The notes below the pieces were generated by a model. It was not told where the DNA came from and did not search any database. It saw nothing but the letters and a program-made list of their open reading frames with translations. A stretch of 64,000 nt of DNA, from NCBI GenBank assembly GCA_963757335.1, contig CAVWRJ010000021.1, positions 256,853 through 320,852 of the forward strand, read 5' to 3'. The DNA comes from an uncultured Acidobacteriota bacterium. GTDB taxonomy: Bacteria > Acidobacteriota > Thermoanaerobaculia > Multivoradales > UBA5704. The first letter of the stretch is position 1; every line of letters begins with the position of its first letter. This document shows, piece by piece, positions 23,602-34,346 of this stretch. Made by a program: the position numbers and the translations under genes.

Positions 23602-23885
23602 GCTCCTGAGAGCAGCAGGTCCTCAGCCTGATTGGGATCGGCGGCATCGGCGGGATCAACCCGCCTGGAAGCCCCGAAGGGGCAAAGGCATGTAGCCTGG
23701 GGCGCAAGCCCCAGGTGAGAGACAAAAGAGATCCAGCCCCGAAGGGGCGACGGAAAGCCCGCCACTGCCGTCGCCCCTTCGGGGCTTTGAATTCAATAGG
23801 TGGATCCTGTCCAGGGGCTTGCGCCCCTGGCTACATGCCGTCGCCCCCTCCGGGGCTACTACTGTTGGCTACCCGCCACCGAGAC

Positions 23886-27730: not shown

Positions 27731-28387
27731 ATGAAGACTCGAGTCCTCACGGCGCTAGCCGTCTTTCTCTGCCCGCTCTTAGCGGCGGCGCAGGTCCGGG
27801 TCACCATCGGCCAGAACGGCCGGAAGGTGATCTGCAACGAGTCGGTCGACCAGCACGAGCGGCGGGTCTCCGACCGGCTCGTCCCCATCCCCGACTCCCG
27901 GATCGAGCCGCTCATCGCCCGCCACGCCGACCGCCAGCAGCTCGATCCCCGGCTGGTGCGAGCGGTCGTCCAGGTGGAATCGGGGTACAACGTCCGCGCC
28001 CGCTCGCCCAAGGGGGCCATGGGGCTGATGCAGCTGATGCCGGACACCGCCGTCGAGCTGGCGGTCTCCGATCCGTACGATCCGGACCAGAACCTGCGCG
28101 GCGGCACCACCTACCTGCGGCGGATGATCGACCGCTTCAAGGGGCAGGTCGAGCTCGCCGTGGCGGCCTACGACGCCGGTCCCGAGGCGGTGGCGAAGCA
28201 CAACGGCATCCCGCCCTACGCCGAGACCCGCGACTACGTGAGGCGGGTGCTCGCCCTCTACCATGGGGGGGGCAGCGGACCGCTGCCGCGGCTGGGGATC
28301 ATCGGCCCCGGCGGGGTCAAGACCTACCTTACCCGCGAAGGCAACAACCGCCTGCTGCTGACCTCGACCTTCAACGGCGGCCGATAG
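27731..28387 (+). CDS. secreted lytic transglycosylase (SLT domain)
   Basis: Signal peptide; VESGYNVRARSPKGAMGLMQLMPDTA...AYDAGPEAV. Confidence 0.75.
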   Translation: MKTRVLTALAVFLCPLLAAAQVRVTIGQNGRKVICNESVDQHERRVSDRLVPIPDSRIEPLIARHADRQQLDPRLVRAVVQVESGYNVRARSPKGAMGLMQLMPDTAVELAVSDPYDPDQNLRGGTTYLRRMIDRFKGQVELAVAAYDAGPEAVAKHNGIPPYAETRDYVRRVLALYHGGGSGPLPRLGIIGPGGVKTYLTREGNNRLLLTSTFNGGR

Positions 28388-28515
28388 GCCGGTTCTCGCC
28401 GGTTTCACGCTGGCTTCACGCTGGTTTCACGCTGGTATCAAAAACTCGCGAACGTTCGGCGGCGGAGAGCGTGGCATACAATGCCCCGGGCGAGATCCGT
28501 CCGCCCGCTTCCGCG

Positions 28516-29097
28516 ATGCTCAACGTCCCGAACGTCCTCACGATCTGCAGGATTCTGCTGGTGCCGCCCCTCGTGGTGGTGCTGCTCACCAAGTTCCCCG
28601 GCAAGGAGTTCGTCGGCCTGGGGCTCTTCCTCCTCGCCGCCCTGATGGACTTCCTGGACGGCTTCCTCGCCCGGCGGCGCAACCAGGTCACCCGGCTGGG
28701 GACCCTCCTCGATCCCGCGGCCGACAAGATCCTCATCTCCGCCGCCTTCATCTCGCTGGTCGAGCTCGATCACCAGCTGGTGCCGGCGTGGATCGTCGTC
28801 GTCATCATCGCCCGCGAGTTCGCCGTCTCGTCTCTCCGCAGCTTCGCCGCCGCCGAGAACCTCATCATCCCCTCGGGGATGTCGGGGAAGGTCAAGACGT
28901 TCGTTCAGATCGTCTCGATCGCCCTCCTCATCATCTACCAGCAGCTCGACCAGTTCCGCCACCTGGCGCCCATCTCGCTGTGGGCGGCCCTCCTCGTCAC
29001 GGTCTACTCCGGAGTCGAGTACTTCATCCGTTTCGGCCGGCTCATCCTGCACGGCGAGACCCCGGCGTCCATGCAGCGCCCGTCGTCCCGGCGATGA
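28516..29097 (+). CDS. pgsA: CDP-diacylglycerol--glycerol-3-phosphate 3-phosphatidyltransferase
   Basis: CDP-alcohol phosphatidyltransferase motif region (DFLDGFLARRRNQVTRLGTLLDPAADK). Confidence 0.8.
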   Translation: MLNVPNVLTICRILLVPPLVVVLLTKFPGKEFVGLGLFLLAALMDFLDGFLARRRNQVTRLGTLLDPAADKILISAAFISLVELDHQLVPAWIVVVIIAREFAVSSLRSFAAAENLIIPSGMSGKVKTFVQIVSIALLIIYQQLDQFRHLAPISLWAALLVTVYSGVEYFIRFGRLILHGETPASMQRPSSRR

Positions 29098-29142
29098 GGC
29101 CCAAAAGCGCGGGCCGGATCTCCAGCTGAGGACGGAGAAAGA

Positions 29143-30357
29143 ATGAAACCGCGGATCTTCATCGCCTGTTCGAGAGAAGCGCTGGACGTGGCCTATGCGA
29201 TCCAGGAGAACGTGTCCAGGGAGGCCGAGGCCACGGTCTGGGACCAGGACGTCTTCCAACCGTCCAGCTACACCCTGGAAGATCTGGTCAAGCAGCTCGA
29301 CCGGGTGGACTCCGGGATCTTCATCTTTTCTCCCGAGGACACCGTGAAGCTGCGCGACGCGACCTACGCGGCGGTGCGCGACAACGTGCTCTTCGAGCTC
29401 GGGCTCTTCATCGGCCGGCTGGGTCGAGAGCGGAACTTCATCATCAAGCCGACCGGCGTCCAGGACTTCCGATTGCCGACCGATCTCATGGGCCTGGGGC
29501 TCCTCGAGTTCGACCCCGATCGCCAGGATGGGAATCTGAACGCGGCTTTGAGCCCCGCCTGCCGCAAGATCCTGAAGCGCCTGCAGCAGCTGCCGCCGAA
29601 CCGTGGCCGGGAGATCGCGGCCCCTCCGGAGCCCGAAGCCGCCCCGGCGCCGCTCCAGATCAACATTCCCGACCAGATCCTGCTCGGCCATTTCATGGGG
29701 AGCCTGCAGGCGATCGTCTTCGTGGACCTCTTCAACCCCGGCCGGGAGGTCGCCAATCTATCGCGGCTCCGGTGCGTGCTCCGCGGCCCCACGGGGGTGA
29801 TCTACGATCTTCCGGCGCGGAACACCCTCTCCCGGCAGCCGCCTCCGCCGGGCCAGTTTGCGGTCGAGTACCCCCTCATCCGCGTCGTCCTCAAGGCGAA
29901 CGAGGACTGGGGAGAGAGCATCCGTTTCTGTGAGCGGTGGATCGGGGACCAGCAGGAGCAGGTCGACCGGATCTTGATGAAGGTCAGGGACAGCATCAGC
30001 GCCAGGCAGTCGGCGAATCCTGGCGGCAGCCTGGTCGAGGCGGACCCGGAGATCGTCGACGAGGCCCGGGCCTTCTTCGCGAGCACGTTCACCCTCACCC
30101 CGGGAGAGTACCAAGGGTTCCTCGTCGTCGAGGGCGAGCGGCTCTTAGGGGTGAAAGGATTCGTGCTGACTCTCTCCGAGAGCTTGATCGAGAGCCTGAA
30201 GCTGGTGACGACCCGGGGCTACAAGTATGGCTACGGCATCTGTTTTCCCAACAACGACCCCCAGTACAGCCCCTGGCCAGGCATCCGGGTGATCGATGAC
30301 GAGAAGGCCAGGGCCGCCTATCAGGAGCTGAGGAAAGGCTCGACCGCCAGCCCGTAG
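29143..30357 (+). CDS. TIR-like (COG4271-type) nucleotide-binding domain protein with a roughly 250-aa C-terminal domain of unknown function
   Basis: N-terminal 135 aa: RIFIACSRE...VWDQDVF...GIFIFSPED...RDNVLFELGLFIGRLGRERNFII matches the TIR-like signature (NV-FE-G-F-G-LGRER). The remainder matches no family I recognise. Confidence 0.55.
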   Translation: MKPRIFIACSREALDVAYAIQENVSREAEATVWDQDVFQPSSYTLEDLVKQLDRVDSGIFIFSPEDTVKLRDATYAAVRDNVLFELGLFIGRLGRERNFIIKPTGVQDFRLPTDLMGLGLLEFDPDRQDGNLNAALSPACRKILKRLQQLPPNRGREIAAPPEPEAAPAPLQINIPDQILLGHFMGSLQAIVFVDLFNPGREVANLSRLRCVLRGPTGVIYDLPARNTLSRQPPPPGQFAVEYPLIRVVLKANEDWGESIRFCERWIGDQQEQVDRILMKVRDSISARQSANPGGSLVEADPEIVDEARAFFASTFTLTPGEYQGFLVVEGERLLGVKGFVLTLSESLIESLKLVTTRGYKYGYGICFPNNDPQYSPWPGIRVIDDEKARAAYQELRKGSTASP

Positions 30358-31310
30358 GTTGGATTGATCCTGGGGCCTGTACCGATCCGGCCGGCCACCT
30401 CCCGGATCGCCTCGGCGACCGCCTCCGGCACCTCTTCCTGAAGGAAGTGCCCCGCCGTCTCGACGCGGGTGACCTGGGCCCGGGGGAGGGCGCGCTCGTG
30501 GCGGGAGAGCGCCCGGCCGAGGATCGGATCGCGCATCCCCCAGACGAGGGCGGAGGGCCCGGCGAAGGAGCGCACCCACTCCTCGCCCCGCCGGATCGCC
30601 GGCACGCTGGGGTGCCCGGGGCCGTCCGGCACCATCCGGGCGAGGGCGAGCGGCGCCACCCGCTCCGCCCAGCTACGGAGCGGAAACCGGTAGGCGCGGG
30701 CGACCTCGCCGCTTAAGGACTGCCGGTCGCCCTGGACCCGGTTTAAGACGTTCATGGGCAGCCCGAGACCCCGGAACGCCAGGTTGGAGACGCCGGGCAT
30801 CCGGGAGAAGCGGTGAAACCAGGTACCCCCGAACCGCTCCGGCACGAGCACCGCGGTGTTGGCGAGCACGAGCCCCGCGATCCGCTCCGGGCAACGCGCC
30901 CCCACCTGCGCCGCGATCGGCCCGCCCCAATCCTGTCCGACGAGGACGATCCCCTTGAGATCGAGCGCCGTCACCAGCTCCGCGATCGCCGCCCCATGCC
31001 GTTCGAGCGAGTGGTCCGCGAGATGCTGTGGCTTGGAGGAGAAGCCCAGTCCCAGGAGGTCGGGGGCCACGCAGTGGAATTCCGGCAGGAGGGCGATAAC
31101 CCGCCGCCAGAGGAAGCTCCAGGTAGGGTTGCCATGAAGGAGGAGCACCGGGCGGGCAGTCGGGTGCCCCGGATCGAGGAAGTGCAGAAGGCGGCCGGAA
31201 TCCGGCCCGGACGCGAGCCGGTAGGCTCGCCGGGGAAAGGGGAGGAGAGCCTCCAGGAACTCGGGGAGGGGCGGGGGCGGGGGGAAGGGCATGGAGGTAA
31301 AGTCCTCCAT
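30321..31310 (-). CDS. alpha/beta-fold hydrolase (haloalkane dehalogenase-like)
   Basis: VLLLHGNPTWSFLWRRVI...LVGQDWGGPIA nucleophile elbow; convergent 36-bp overlap with the TIR-like gene. Confidence 0.7.
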   Translation of the reverse strand: MEDFTSMPFPPPPPLPEFLEALLPFPRRAYRLASGPDSGRLLHFLDPGHPTARPVLLLHGNPTWSFLWRRVIALLPEFHCVAPDLLGLGFSSKPQHLADHSLERHGAAIAELVTALDLKGIVLVGQDWGGPIAAQVGARCPERIAGLVLANTAVLVPERFGGTWFHRFSRMPGVSNLAFRGLGLPMNVLNRVQGDRQSLSGEVARAYRFPLRSWAERVAPLALARMVPDGPGHPSVPAIRRGEEWVRSFAGPSALVWGMRDPILGRALSRHERALPRAQVTRVETAGHFLQEEVPEAVAEAIREVAGRIGTGPRINPTYGLAVEPFLSS

Positions 31311-31390
31311 CTATGATAGCGGCTGTGCCCTGGGGAGGCTCTGCTTCGAAAGACTCCCGAAAGAGCGATGACGCAGGTCACCTGCAGGCG

Positions 31391-31700
31391 TTAGAGACGC
31401 GAGCTCCCCATTTCGGACGCTACACTCCTCTTTTCAGACGCGAAACACCTCTTTTCGGACGCAGAAATGAACGCTTCGGCGTCCAGAGTGAGCTTTTTAG
31501 CGTCCGAAAGAAGCTCTCCAGCGTCCGGAAAGCTCTTTTCGGAGTCCGGAAGATTCATTTCTGCGTCCGAAGTCCTCCTTTCGGCGTCCAGAATGAGCAT
31601 TTCTGAGTCCGAAGTCCTCTTTTCCACGTCCGAAATGAGCATTTATGCGTCCAGAAAGATCTCGTAGCGTCCAGAAGACGTGACTTTAGCGTCCGAAGCC
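31391..31700. repeat. array of about 15 degenerate 20-23 bp repeats with a conserved 9-bp core TTCGGACGC: 3 units in one orientation, then about 11 in the inverse orientation (GCGTCCGAA)
   Basis: Direct reading of the sequence: units such as tcggacgcagaaatgaacgct, then agcgtccgaaagaagctctcc, tgcgtccgaagtcctccttt and so on. Confidence 0.85.
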
Positions 31701-31983
31701 CTGCGTTTCGGTCGTTCCGAGAGGCTGTTCGCTCTCTGTCAGGGCACTAAGGCTTCAAGTGGCCTCAGTAATTAGCCTGAATAGAATGAGTGGTTTGCCG
31801 CTGCGGTCAGGAAGAAGGCGAGCCAACGTAGGGTTGGGAGACGAAAGCTAGCGTCCGAAAGAGTAGACGCAAGGCGGACCGGACTCTAGATCTGGACGCT
31901 AGCGCTCGGGCAGCTGGTGCCGTAGTAAGATTCTCTGCACTCTTCCAGCCGAATCGGACGGAAGGACGGGAGAGAACGCCGCC

Positions 31984-32676
31984 ATGGATGGACAACGCGC
32001 CATCGTTCTCGGAGCCACGGGAGCCGTGGGTTCGAGCCTGGTGCGCGAGCTGCTCGCCTCGCCGCGCTGGGCCGAGGTCACCGCGCTCACCCGCCGGCCA
32101 GTCGAGATCTTCGCGGGGGCCGCGGGTCGCGAGAAGCTGAAGCTTCGGGTTGTCGATCTGGATCGACTGGAGCCCGAGACGGTAGCGGCGGCGCGCGGCT
32201 GCGACGCGGCCTTCTGCACGATGGGCGTCGGCCAGCCGCGGAAGCTGGCGCGGGAGGAAGTTCTCAAGGTGGACGTCCAGTACCCGGCCGCCTTTGCGCG
32301 CGGCGCCCATGCGGCGGGGGTGCGGCACATCTCGCTTCTCTCCTCGGCGGGGGCCGACGCCGGGGCGCGCAACTTCTATCTCCGCTTGAAGGGCTCGGCC
32401 GAGGCGGGCATCTCTTCGGCGGGCATCCCACGAACCAGCCTCTTCCGCCCGAGCCTCCTCGTCACCCGGGAGATCCGCTACGGGCTGCAGGACCGTCTGA
32501 CGCAGTCCCTCTTTCCGCTCCTCTCGTCCATCCTCCCCAGCCGGTTCCACGAGATCCGCGTCGAGGATCTCGGCCGCGCGATGCGGATCAACGCCGAGCT
32601 TCCGGGAAAGGATGGCGTCGAGATTCTCTATTACGCGGATTTCATCGCTCTGCTACGAGTGGAGACCCGTCCATGA
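31984..32676 (+). CDS. NAD(P)H-binding oxidoreductase (TIP30/NmrA-like Rossmann protein)
   Basis: N-terminal AIVLGATGAVGSSLVREL Rossmann motif. Confidence 0.6.
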   Translation: MDGQRAIVLGATGAVGSSLVRELLASPRWAEVTALTRRPVEIFAGAAGREKLKLRVVDLDRLEPETVAAARGCDAAFCTMGVGQPRKLAREEVLKVDVQYPAAFARGAHAAGVRHISLLSSAGADAGARNFYLRLKGSAEAGISSAGIPRTSLFRPSLLVTREIRYGLQDRLTQSLFPLLSSILPSRFHEIRVEDLGRAMRINAELPGKDGVEILYYADFIALLRVETRP

Positions 32677-33816
32677 CCGACCAGCTCAACCGCCGTGATT
32701 TCCTCGTCGTTGGCGCCACCGCCGCCGCCGCCGGCCTGGCCGCCGCCGCTCCGCGGACGCTCTTCGGCGAGTCTCCGGCTGCCCCGGCGCCGGCGGTGAT
32801 CGCGCCGAAAGGCGGCGGGGTCAGGCCGGTCGTCATCTCCTCGGCGAACGGCAACGTGTTCAAGAACGGCGGCGAGATGACCGGGGTCCAGAAGGCGTTC
32901 ACCCTGATGACCCAGGGGTTCGACGTGCTCGACGCCCTGGTCGCCGGGGTTAACATCCTGGAGCTCGATCCCGGAGGAGGACAGCGTCGGCTACGGCGGA
33001 CTGCCGAACGCCGAAGGGGTCGTCCAGCTCGACTCCTGCTGCATGCACGGCCCACGCAAGCAGGCGGGCGGGGTGGCTTCGCTCGAAGGGATACGGACCC
33101 CCTCGCTCCTCGCCAAGGCGGTTTTGGAGCAGACCGATCACCATCTCCTGGTCGGCAGGGGAGCGCAGGAGTTCGCCCGCGGCCTGGGGTGGAAGATCGA
33201 GGACGATCTGAACACCGAGCACTCCCGCCACCTCTGGATCGAGTGGAAGCGCCGCACCGACCCCGATCACTACCTCGATCCCAAGAAGCGCGCCGAGGCC
33301 GGGTTCGCCACCGCGCTCCAGATGGCGAGCGAGGGGCTCCTCCGCCGCGAGCACCTGTGGGGGACGATCAACTGCGACGGCGTCAACGCCCGGGGCGAGG
33401 TCTGCGGGGTGACGACGACCTCGGGTCTCGCCTGGAAGATCCCCGGCCGGGTGGGCGACTCGCCGATCCTCGGCGCCGGCCTCTATGTGGACGGCGAGGT
33501 CGGCGCGGCGGGCTCGACCGGGCGGGGCGAGGCGAACCTCTACAACCTCTCCTCGTTCTTCATCGTCGAGGAGATGCGCCGCGGCGCCCACCCCAAGGAC
33601 GCCGGCATGGCAGCGCTCAAACGGGTGGCGGCGAACACGGTCGAGAAGCGGCTGAGGAACGATCGCGGGCAGCCGAACTTCGGGCTCAACTTCTACATCC
33701 TGAACCGGAAGGGCGAGCACGCGGGGGTTTCGATGTACCCCTCGAAGTACGCGGTCTGCACGGAGAACGGACCGCAGACGCTGCCGACCGAGGCGCTCTA
33801 TCCTGGGCAGCCGTAG
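32673..33816 (+). CDS. Ntn-hydrolase isoaspartyl peptidase / glycosylasparaginase with Tat signal; 1-nt frameshift near 32975
   Basis: RRDFLVVGATAAAAG Tat motif. Second frame carries GTINCDGVNARGEVCGVTTTSGLAWKIPGRVGDSPILGAGLYVD (Thr nucleophile). Removing one g in cccggagg restores DPEEDSVGYGGLPN. Confidence 0.8.
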
Positions 33817-34346
33817 GTTCGGGGGAGAGGCAGCTCAGCCGAGGGTGCTGCCTACGCGGCTGTAGAGCTTGTCTTTAAGCGACTCCCGCGATGTATCCTC
33901 TGAGCTTCTTCGCGAGTCCGGCCCCGGGATGAGCTGCTCTCGAGCGCTGGGTAGTGGGCGACGACGATCCCGTCTTCACCGGCCGTTCGCAGGCAGCCAG
34001 ATACTCGAGATACCATGGCGGCTCCTTCCTGAGAGCAGGCTATCCCGCCCAGAGCTTCGCAGGTCCTCGGAATGATCGGTAGAGGCTTCTCGTCGCTGGG
34101 GCTCCCGCAGAGCTTCTGTGCAGCATTAATGCTCTCGTAAAGTGCCGGCTTGAGAAGAGTCCTCGCCGAAGCGTCCCTCCCCCCATCCCCTTCCACCCGC
34201 CCGCCCAGGGGGAGGAACCCTTCGGCGAGGATTCTTCTCAAGCCGAGGCCCTTCTGAACGAGTCTTTCTGCGGAAGCCCTGCGGGACCAGGCGATGCGAA
34301 AGACCCTGCCTATCATTCCAAGGCTGACGAACCACTAAGGCCTCCG

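Follow-up and report, generated by a model that had tools for sequence, protein, structure and literature searches.

A TIR protein with a C-terminal domain of no known relative, shared with a patchily distributed family of membrane proteins: a candidate single-gene abortive-infection system

The gene described here, TIR-X, lies in a 64,000-nucleotide (nt) stretch of the genome of an uncultured Acidobacteriota bacterium (contig CAVWRJ010000021.1 of assembly GCA_963757335.1, positions 256,853 to 320,852), referred to below as the window and numbered from its first letter. The encoded protein joins an N-terminal TIR domain to a C-terminal domain, here named X. It had been marked in an initial annotation as a candidate single-gene immunity or stress protein. 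The features of the gene are as follows.

29143..30357, + strand: complete TIR-X coding sequence in the open reading frame (ORF) list, with ATG start and TAG stop, 404 amino acids (aa)
29134..29137, + strand: Shine-Dalgarno-like GGAG, 5 nt ahead of the TIR-X ATG
29143..29592, + strand: TIR module, residues 1-150, matched by PF10137, PADLOC and PDB entries
29152-29514, + strand: Pfam TIR core, residues 4-124, followed by the conserved C-terminal helix RQDGNLNAALSPACRKI
29395..29397, + strand: codon of Glu85, the equivalent of catalytic Glu84 of SfSTING (the TIR-STING protein of Sphingobacterium faecium), in the motif RDNVLFELG
29482..29484, + strand: codon of Asp114, the equivalent of SfSTING Asp110, within P112-T113-D114-L115, which is invariant in a five-sequence alignment
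29593..29652, + strand: linker, residues ~151-170, rich in Pro, Ala and Glu, poorly conserved and of low predicted local distance difference test score (pLDDT) in both structural models
29656..29931, + strand: X subdomain 1, a beta-sandwich in the AlphaFold2 (AF2) model, residues 172-263, with conserved H183, G186, N198, G200 and W256
29947..30339, + strand: X subdomain 2, alpha-beta in the AF2 model, residues 269-399, with conserved G321, Y323 and Y360-x2-G363

Its codon-position GC contents of 0.64/0.42/0.88 are typical of real genes in this window of ~68% GC. The identical protein (P0001) is held in a public collection, where it lies on a 580 kb NCBI contig.

Profile searches gave strong support for the TIR-like fold that had been proposed for the N-terminus. 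The module belongs to PF10137 ('CAP12/Pycsar effector protein, TIR domain'): the match, with E 2.4e-28 and a score of 99 bits where the cut-off is 24.7, spans positions 1-118 of the 119 in the profile. The JGI names of homologues, 'Predicted nucleotide-binding protein containing TIR-like domain', fit the earlier COG4271-type label. PADLOC models for TIR effectors of cyclic oligonucleotide-based antiphage signalling systems (CBASS) matched at 1e-46 to 2e-36 and the PADLOC PycTIR model at 2e-33, and the solved structures that matched best were Cap12 (9LMQ, 1.6e-22), PycTIR (8JSJ, 1.4e-16) and SfSTING (7UN8, 1e-14). No PADLOC model for Thoeris ThsB matched TIR-X at E<=1. The signature had originally been likened to effectors of CBASS, Pycsar and Thoeris alike; the likeness holds for the Cap12/PycTIR class and not for the ThsB class. 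The C-terminal helix of the TIR module is also found in TIR proteins of ~250 aa, such as P0006.

The pocket for nicotinamide adenine dinucleotide (NAD) hydrolysis in SfSTING comprises F6, S10, W33, F37, L47, R78, N80 and the catalytic E84, while D110 is donated by the opposite TIR and is placed in the neighbour's site by filament formation (PMC9402430). In a HMMER alignment to 7UN8, numbered by this published list, all nine residues have counterparts in the window protein (F6, S10, W33, F38, L48, R79, N81, E85 and D114), and these nine are invariant in the five full-length TIR-X proteins found. The alignment thus recovered the catalytic Glu of TIR NADases together with the entire SfSTING pocket. 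Judged by its sequence, the TIR of TIR-X is of the Cap12/PycTIR NAD-depleting class, and it looks catalytically competent because all nine pocket residues are kept. By analogy with SfSTING, activity probably requires that two TIRs be packed together. Among the 120 closest TIR relatives, 112 have the TIR at the N-terminus followed by varied C-terminal domains, and only five carry X. Such variety is the pattern of sensor shuffling seen in conflict systems.

The C-terminal part of TIR-X was modelled with AF2 from a multiple sequence alignment of 47 sequences, giving a pLDDT of 92.3 and a predicted template modelling score of 0.85 for X (residues ~171-399; model mc96d3c7f8f86). This model superseded an earlier full-length AF2 model from a five-sequence alignment (pLDDT 58, TIR <50), whose Foldseek matches were uninformative. 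In the new model, two long helices of subdomain 2 are followed by a beta-hairpin/helix/strand/helix unit, and Y360-x2-G363 lies within a 'GYKYGxG' loop. Foldseek returned no significant match for the pLDDT-92 model, the nearest hits being generic sandwiches of immunoglobulin/fibronectin type III-like fold (E>=6e-3). Neither sequence nor Foldseek comparison revealed likeness to STING, SAVED, CARF or cyclic nucleotide monophosphate (cNMP)-binding folds. Searches with the single sequence, a five-sequence profile and a 47-sequence profile gave zero matches in Pfam, NCBIfam, PADLOC, PHROGs and PDB sequences.

The domain had been described as unassigned, and it indeed has no database match; it is not unique to this protein, however, as 435 clusters carry it. 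These were found at E<=1e-3 among 1.84 billion representatives (224 at <=1e-10) with a profile of the five TIR-X C-termini, and typical matches covered profile positions 5-235 of 241. The best match without a TIR scored E 6e-59. In the reciprocal direction, a hidden Markov model (HMM) from 47 family members scored the window protein at 1.6e-60. A word-index search with X alone retrieved only the protein itself and its 80% homologue, and it was the exhaustive profile search that revealed the family. Conserved family-wide are H183, G186, N198, G200, W256, G321, Y323, L352, Y360 and G363, a set that resembles a surface for binding or contact more than a hydrolytic centre. X is a real, folded and widely distributed domain without a known relative.

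Most members of the family consist of X preceded by a single transmembrane (TM) helix, and we refer to these proteins of ~250-280 aa, in which X begins at about residue 35, as TM-X. A hydrophobic 17-mer (Kyte-Doolittle (KD) hydropathy >=1.6) was present just before X in 151 of the 164 members with a complete N-terminus (~92%). The helix usually starts at residue 14 and has a conserved '...ALVLSQLPP' end. Lys and Arg together average 0.9 in the 15 residues that precede the helix, compared with 3.0 behind it; by the positive-inside rule, the X of TM-X is therefore cytoplasmic. The window protein has no hydrophobic segment ahead of X, its best 17-mer (KD 1.55) lying within X. Apart from the helix, the only N-terminal module recognised among members was TIR, and the TM and TIR N-termini are mutually exclusive. 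Longer family proteins have N-terminal extensions without a Pfam domain, and several of them look like over-extended ORF calls. TM-X proteins thus share with TIR-X homology over the full length of X, a single-gene organisation and a variable context, and differ in having one N-terminal hydrophobic helix where TIR-X has its TIR. All are annotated as 'hypothetical', and no model of the family exists in Pfam, NCBIfam 20.0 or PADLOC 2.0. Examples are P0285 of Aliivibrio fischeri MJ11, P0292 of Rhodanobacter and 42 genome loci (L018-L059). The family is patchy across at least nine phyla, the genome scan having yielded members in Gamma- and Betaproteobacteria, Planctomycetota, Acidobacteriota, Bacteroidota, Nitrospirota, Elusimicrobiota, Myxococcota, Zixibacteria and Desulfobacterota.

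As a separate observation, the segment ILKRLQQLPPNRGRE at the TIR-X linker (29566-29610, residues 142-157) resembles the motif ALILSQLPPIRELLRG that follows the helix in TM-X, with 'LQQLPP' in the place of 'LSQLPP'. This likeness is confined to the lineage of the window protein and its 80% homologue (P0002), and it may be a relic of a domain swap or due to chance.

The exchange of TIR for a membrane helix bears on the type of output. TIRs that retain the Glu can act as cyclases or otherwise produce a signal (Thoeris types are reviewed in 10.64898/2025.12.03.692087), and TIR-X might accordingly work in the manner of ThsB, with X sensing infection and the TIR making a molecule of the cyclic ADP-ribose type for an effector elsewhere. 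We regard this as very improbable. At E<=1, ThsB models gave no match, whereas those for the NAD-depleting TIRs of CBASS and Pycsar did (1e-46 to 1e-33). There is also no adjacent effector, and a module that can be replaced by a membrane helix suits the position of an effector, not that of a signal synthase.

TIR-X forms five full-length clusters only among 5.8 billion proteins, with identities to the window protein of 100, 80, 43, 41 and 43%. A search of genome contigs for related loci yielded none, and a metagenome search yielded seven TM-X and, as TIR-X, only the known contig of P0003; the TIR-X form is therefore genuinely rare. The neighbours at the five TIR-X loci are unrelated to each other and include no cyclase. 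P0004 is found among IS110, IS91 and ISAzo13 transposases, an integrase and a DUF433/DUF5615 pair, and P0005 is divergent from all its neighbours. Homologues consistently embedded in metabolic operons would have spoken against the candidate proposed at first; the neighbourhood analysis revealed no such embedding.

P0002, which has a cluster-mate annotated as Thermoanaerobaculia bacterium (Acidobacteriota), offered the closest comparison. In the window, an alpha/beta-hydrolase ORF (30321..31310, - strand) converges with TIR-X. This overlap had been noticed earlier at 36 bp and is borne out, its length being 37 bp when both stop codons are counted. The hydrolase is kept downstream of P0002 on contig L004 (84% aa identity). 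The upstream genes differ, an HpnN-like resistance-nodulation-division (RND) transporter being found on L004 and a CDP-alcohol phosphatidyltransferase in the window, and in pairwise alignment the DNA homology of the two begins only ~18 nt upstream of the TIR-X ATG. L004 also has an extra segment of ~600 bp between TIR-X and hydrolase, which is absent from the window (30361-30390), where the two genes overlap; the last ~20 codons of the hydrolase differ between the two for this reason. The segment holds a 154-aa ORF (L004 2387-2851, - strand) with no PDB sequence match. The hydrolase was considered as a functional partner of TIR-X and rejected: the pair is kept only in the 80% relative and is absent or unrelated at the other TIR-X loci, and alpha/beta-hydrolases are not enriched among 141 TM-X neighbours.

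The genomic context of TM-X was surveyed at 44 loci, made up of 39 of the 42 from a one-genome-per-species scan and five from exact-protein look-ups. When all ORFs within 5 kb were clustered all against all, no neighbour family turned up in more than 5 of the 44 loci; the X family thus behaves as a stand-alone gene. Identical TM-X proteins were found beside different neighbours. Small co-oriented ORFs precede some TM-X genes, one of 126 aa overlapping the start codon in Rhodanobacter (L009:9621-10001) and another of 144 aa lying upstream on a different contig (L006:9366-9800). They were discarded as partners, since they cluster neither with each other nor across loci.

Several members are located on elements of a mobile type. 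In A. fischeri MJ11, TM-X occupies the cassette at 10001-10765 of L005 (chromosome II, CP001133.1 738747-759511). The whole of this region (L005:1-20765) looks like a chromosomal-integron cassette array. It is a long series of small ORFs on one strand, with several families of direct repeats of 130-300 nt in between, those of 130-180 nt among them, and its cassettes include ParE/Phd, two ASCH, DUF3800 and GIY-YIG. The TM-X gene was also present on six IMG/VR viral contigs. In one of these (IMGVR_UViG_2728369613_000001, L069:7983-8714), it forms an opposite-strand moron within a Mu-like transposable phage that has transposases A and B, terminase and portal genes, placed between a Mor-like late activator and the late/packaging genes. 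In another (L072), it follows an integrase/repressor pair. Curated collections gave one megaplasmid match to TM-X and no GenBank phage match. Among the 141 nearest neighbours at the 39 genome-scan loci, the commonest Pfam domains were phage integrase (3), DDE transposase (3+2) and ParE toxin (3), and PADLOC matched AbiLi (2), a cytosine methyltransferase, NsnA, PD-T4-2_A and SoFic. This defence-island signal is only suggestive.

Effector families of CBASS and Pycsar are known to alternate a TM segment or a TIR on one sensor, as in TIR-STING and TM-STING or PycTIR and PycTM. In these systems, the sensor domain binds the activating ligand, drives oligomerisation and in this way switches on either effector type. 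Because the TM-or-TIR swap of the X family matches this architecture, we propose X as a trigger-binding and self-associating module; its usual fusion to a single TM helix lends indirect support to the role of a sensor. On this basis, we hypothesize that TIR-X is a self-contained two-module immunity protein of the abortive-infection type, in which X would sense the trigger and self-associate, and we give this hypothesis about an even chance of being correct. We infer that the protein would be an NADase activated by oligomerisation, that the trigger sensed by X would arise from infection, and that the outcome would be protection against phage.

In the proposed mechanism, the TIR domains would be kept apart and inactive in the resting state. 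X would bind an infection cue, for which a phage protein or a change brought about by infection is the likeliest candidate; a direct trigger of this kind is favoured over a second messenger because no signal-generating gene accompanies any member of the family. X would oligomerise on binding, the TIRs would pack in such a way that the Glu85 active site in one TIR is completed by Asp114 from the next, and NAD+ would be hydrolysed, stopping growth of the infected cell ahead of the release of phage progeny. In the TM-X paralogues, the same X-driven clustering would gather the N-terminal TM helices and breach the membrane.

Among known systems, Cap12 (TIR-STING; SfSTING 7UN8 and Cap12 9LMQ) is the nearest in layout, sharing with TIR-X the N-terminal PF10137 TIR with 9/9 active-site residues and a C-terminal regulatory domain behind it. 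On the strength of this common TIR, active site and layout, the activation logic is likely shared, the C-terminal domain driving TIR-TIR packing. The C-terminus of TIR-X is, however, not a STING domain: the NCBIfam Cap12 equivalogs NF050172 and NF050171 reached 115 and 80 bits where 450 is required, their alignment being limited to the TIR part (positions 1-147 of 312), and no CD-NTase was found at the flanks in the window or at the other four TIR-X loci. PycTIR shares the TIR subfamily, and its exchange with PycTM resembles that of the X family. Its order is the reverse of that in TIR-X, with an unrelated cNMP-binding sensor at the N-terminus and the TIR at the C-terminus, so that the PADLOC PycTIR model matches TIR-X at positions 151-285 of 288 only, which is the TIR part; no pyrimidine cyclase lies near TIR-X. 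From Thoeris, TIR-X differs in having neither a ThsB match nor a ThsA-type effector-like neighbour, and from TIR-SAVED and CARF-TIR (Cat1) in showing no SAVED or CARF sensor fold.

In mode of action, TIR-X may be likened to DSR2 (defence-associated sirtuin 2) and comparable single proteins that join an NADase to a sensor. DSR2 has an N-terminal NAD+-depleting enzyme and a C-terminal domain that directly recognises the phage tail tube protein (PMC10981675). The proposed working of TIR-X would likewise reside in one polypeptide without a signalling partner, and TIR-X is probably like DSR2 in being partner-less. The two have no homology: the enzyme of DSR2 is a SIR2 and not a TIR, and its sensor is a large alpha-solenoid, in contrast to the 230-aa beta-sandwich/alpha-beta domain of TIR-X. 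For the TM-X form, a validated anti-phage cassette of the Vibrio cholerae chromosomal integron, 'Brigantia', has been described as a single TM-domain protein with no other domain (10.1101/2024.07.02.601686). It resembles the A. fischeri TM-X cassette by description only, and might be a TM-X.

The main rival explanation is that TIR-X, like TM-X, is an orphan effector of a second-messenger system. X would then be a new nucleotide-binding sensor with a function like that of STING, SAVED, CARF or a cNMP-binding domain, and the cyclic nucleotide or ADP-ribose-derived signal would come from an enzyme of CBASS, Pycsar, type III CRISPR or Thoeris whose gene lies at another place in the genome or on a different element. 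The characterised relatives of this TIR subfamily, Cap12 and PycTIR, are all signal-activated effectors, alternation of TM and TIR on one sensor is an established hallmark of CBASS and Pycsar, and the aromatic, His, Asn and Gly residues conserved in X are compatible with a ligand pocket. Against this, no adjacent cyclase or conserved gene was found at the 5 TIR-X or the 44 TM-X loci, and a partner would be expected alongside a gene that travels as a lone integron-like cassette or phage moron. Nor does X show likeness in sequence or by Foldseek to STING, SAVED, CARF or cNMP-binding folds. We consider this explanation unlikely, though less so than the other alternatives.

If the direct-sensing reading of TIR-X is extended to its relatives, X would be a new infection-sensing and self-assembling domain without partners, into which a TM helix or a TIR can be plugged, and would define a widespread, unrecognised family of single-gene abortive-infection systems. 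We put this broader view forward tentatively, as somewhat more likely to fail than to hold. Under it, the window protein would be a rare NAD-depleting variant of a widespread TM-X family. The principle of a TIR effector joined to a sensor is known; the novelty lies in the sensor domain, in the family that TM-X and TIR-X form and in the lack of a partner gene.

In the window, TIR-X is the last gene of a same-strand run of recX-like, alaS, DUF1801, SLT transglycosylase and CDP-alcohol phosphatidyltransferase genes, the last of which ends 45 bp upstream of it, and beyond the convergent hydrolase lie NAD-binding, asparaginase, metallophosphoesterase and pyruvate kinase genes. The ten flanking genes (~+-8 kb) encode housekeeping-type Pfam domains. 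In agreement with the initial annotation, a search of these ten genes revealed neither a cyclase or SAVED gene nor any further defence partner known to PADLOC, the sole defence-model match being one weak generic mad8, and the other four TIR-X loci were likewise without a signalling partner. Across 28300-31500, no sigma-70-like promoter or intrinsic terminator was found.

This setting can be reconciled with an explanation in which TIR-X has no role in immunity and is an ordinary chromosomal gene for stress or physiology, encoding a protein that processes or binds NAD(P) or nucleotides, with X for localisation or regulation. The housekeeping and envelope-lipid flanks, the short distance to the CDP-alcohol phosphatidyltransferase gene, the host-like codon composition and the TIR-X/hydrolase pair kept in the 80% relative would all fit, as would the ordinary metabolic neighbours found at many TM-X loci. 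Yet TIR-X has the active site of immune effectors that deplete NAD, the TIR-X form is extremely rare and its family patchy across phyla, no operon partner is conserved and the upstream neighbour differs even in close relatives, and members occur on an integron-like array, in a Mu-like phage and in islands rich in insertion sequences. This explanation is thus improbable in our view, slightly more so than that of a second-messenger effector.

Several points nevertheless weigh against TIR-X as a directly triggered immunity protein. In the window it sits amid housekeeping genes and not in a defence island, with host-like GC at third codon positions and no mobile-element hallmark. No validated sensor domain is detectably similar to X, which could serve in anchoring or regulation, or be the effector itself. 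Its conserved His, Asn, Trp, two Tyr and Gly residues would also suit a small-molecule pocket, which keeps the second-messenger model alive. The helix of TM-X may be a mere anchor and not a killing device, and the PADLOC matches among TM-X neighbours are to single HMMs, obtained without system logic or background control.

Some further features of the window were recorded. In the low-GC (0.60) intergenic stretch between the hydrolase and NAD-binding genes, ~20 copies of a GCGTCCGRA-like 9-mer are spaced at ~21 bp (31396-31860; Tandem Repeats Finder periods 21 and 42). The stretch matched no Rfam family and could represent either a set of sites bound by a protein or a repeat element that has degenerated. 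An Rfam Acido-Lenti-1 small RNA motif (23670-23715, - strand; 43.6 bits against a gathering score of 37) is located directly upstream of the recX-like/alaS run and agrees with an acidobacterial origin of the window. The asparaginase/isoaspartyl-peptidase gene is apparently split by a frameshift into two ORFs on the + strand: the first (32673-33878) has a twin-arginine translocation-type signal and an asparaginase-like N-terminus and is Arg-rich afterwards, and in the second (33043-33816) the Pfam Asparaginase_2 match begins at profile position 81. No tRNAs were found in the window.

The latest systematic survey of bacterial TIR immunity discarded standalone TIR proteins (10.64898/2025.12.03.692087), and what such proteins sense is for this reason largely unexplored. 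TIR-X joins a well-understood NADase module to a new domain of 230 residues. If the proposed role of X is true, the family would represent a compact one-gene defence unrecognised by PADLOC, NCBIfam and Pfam, and X would be a new sensor fold and a second, independent case, besides STING and SAVED, of an unrelated domain that drives the assembly of TIRs. It would also provide a function for hundreds of 'hypothetical' membrane proteins, including those encoded in integron cassettes and as prophage morons.

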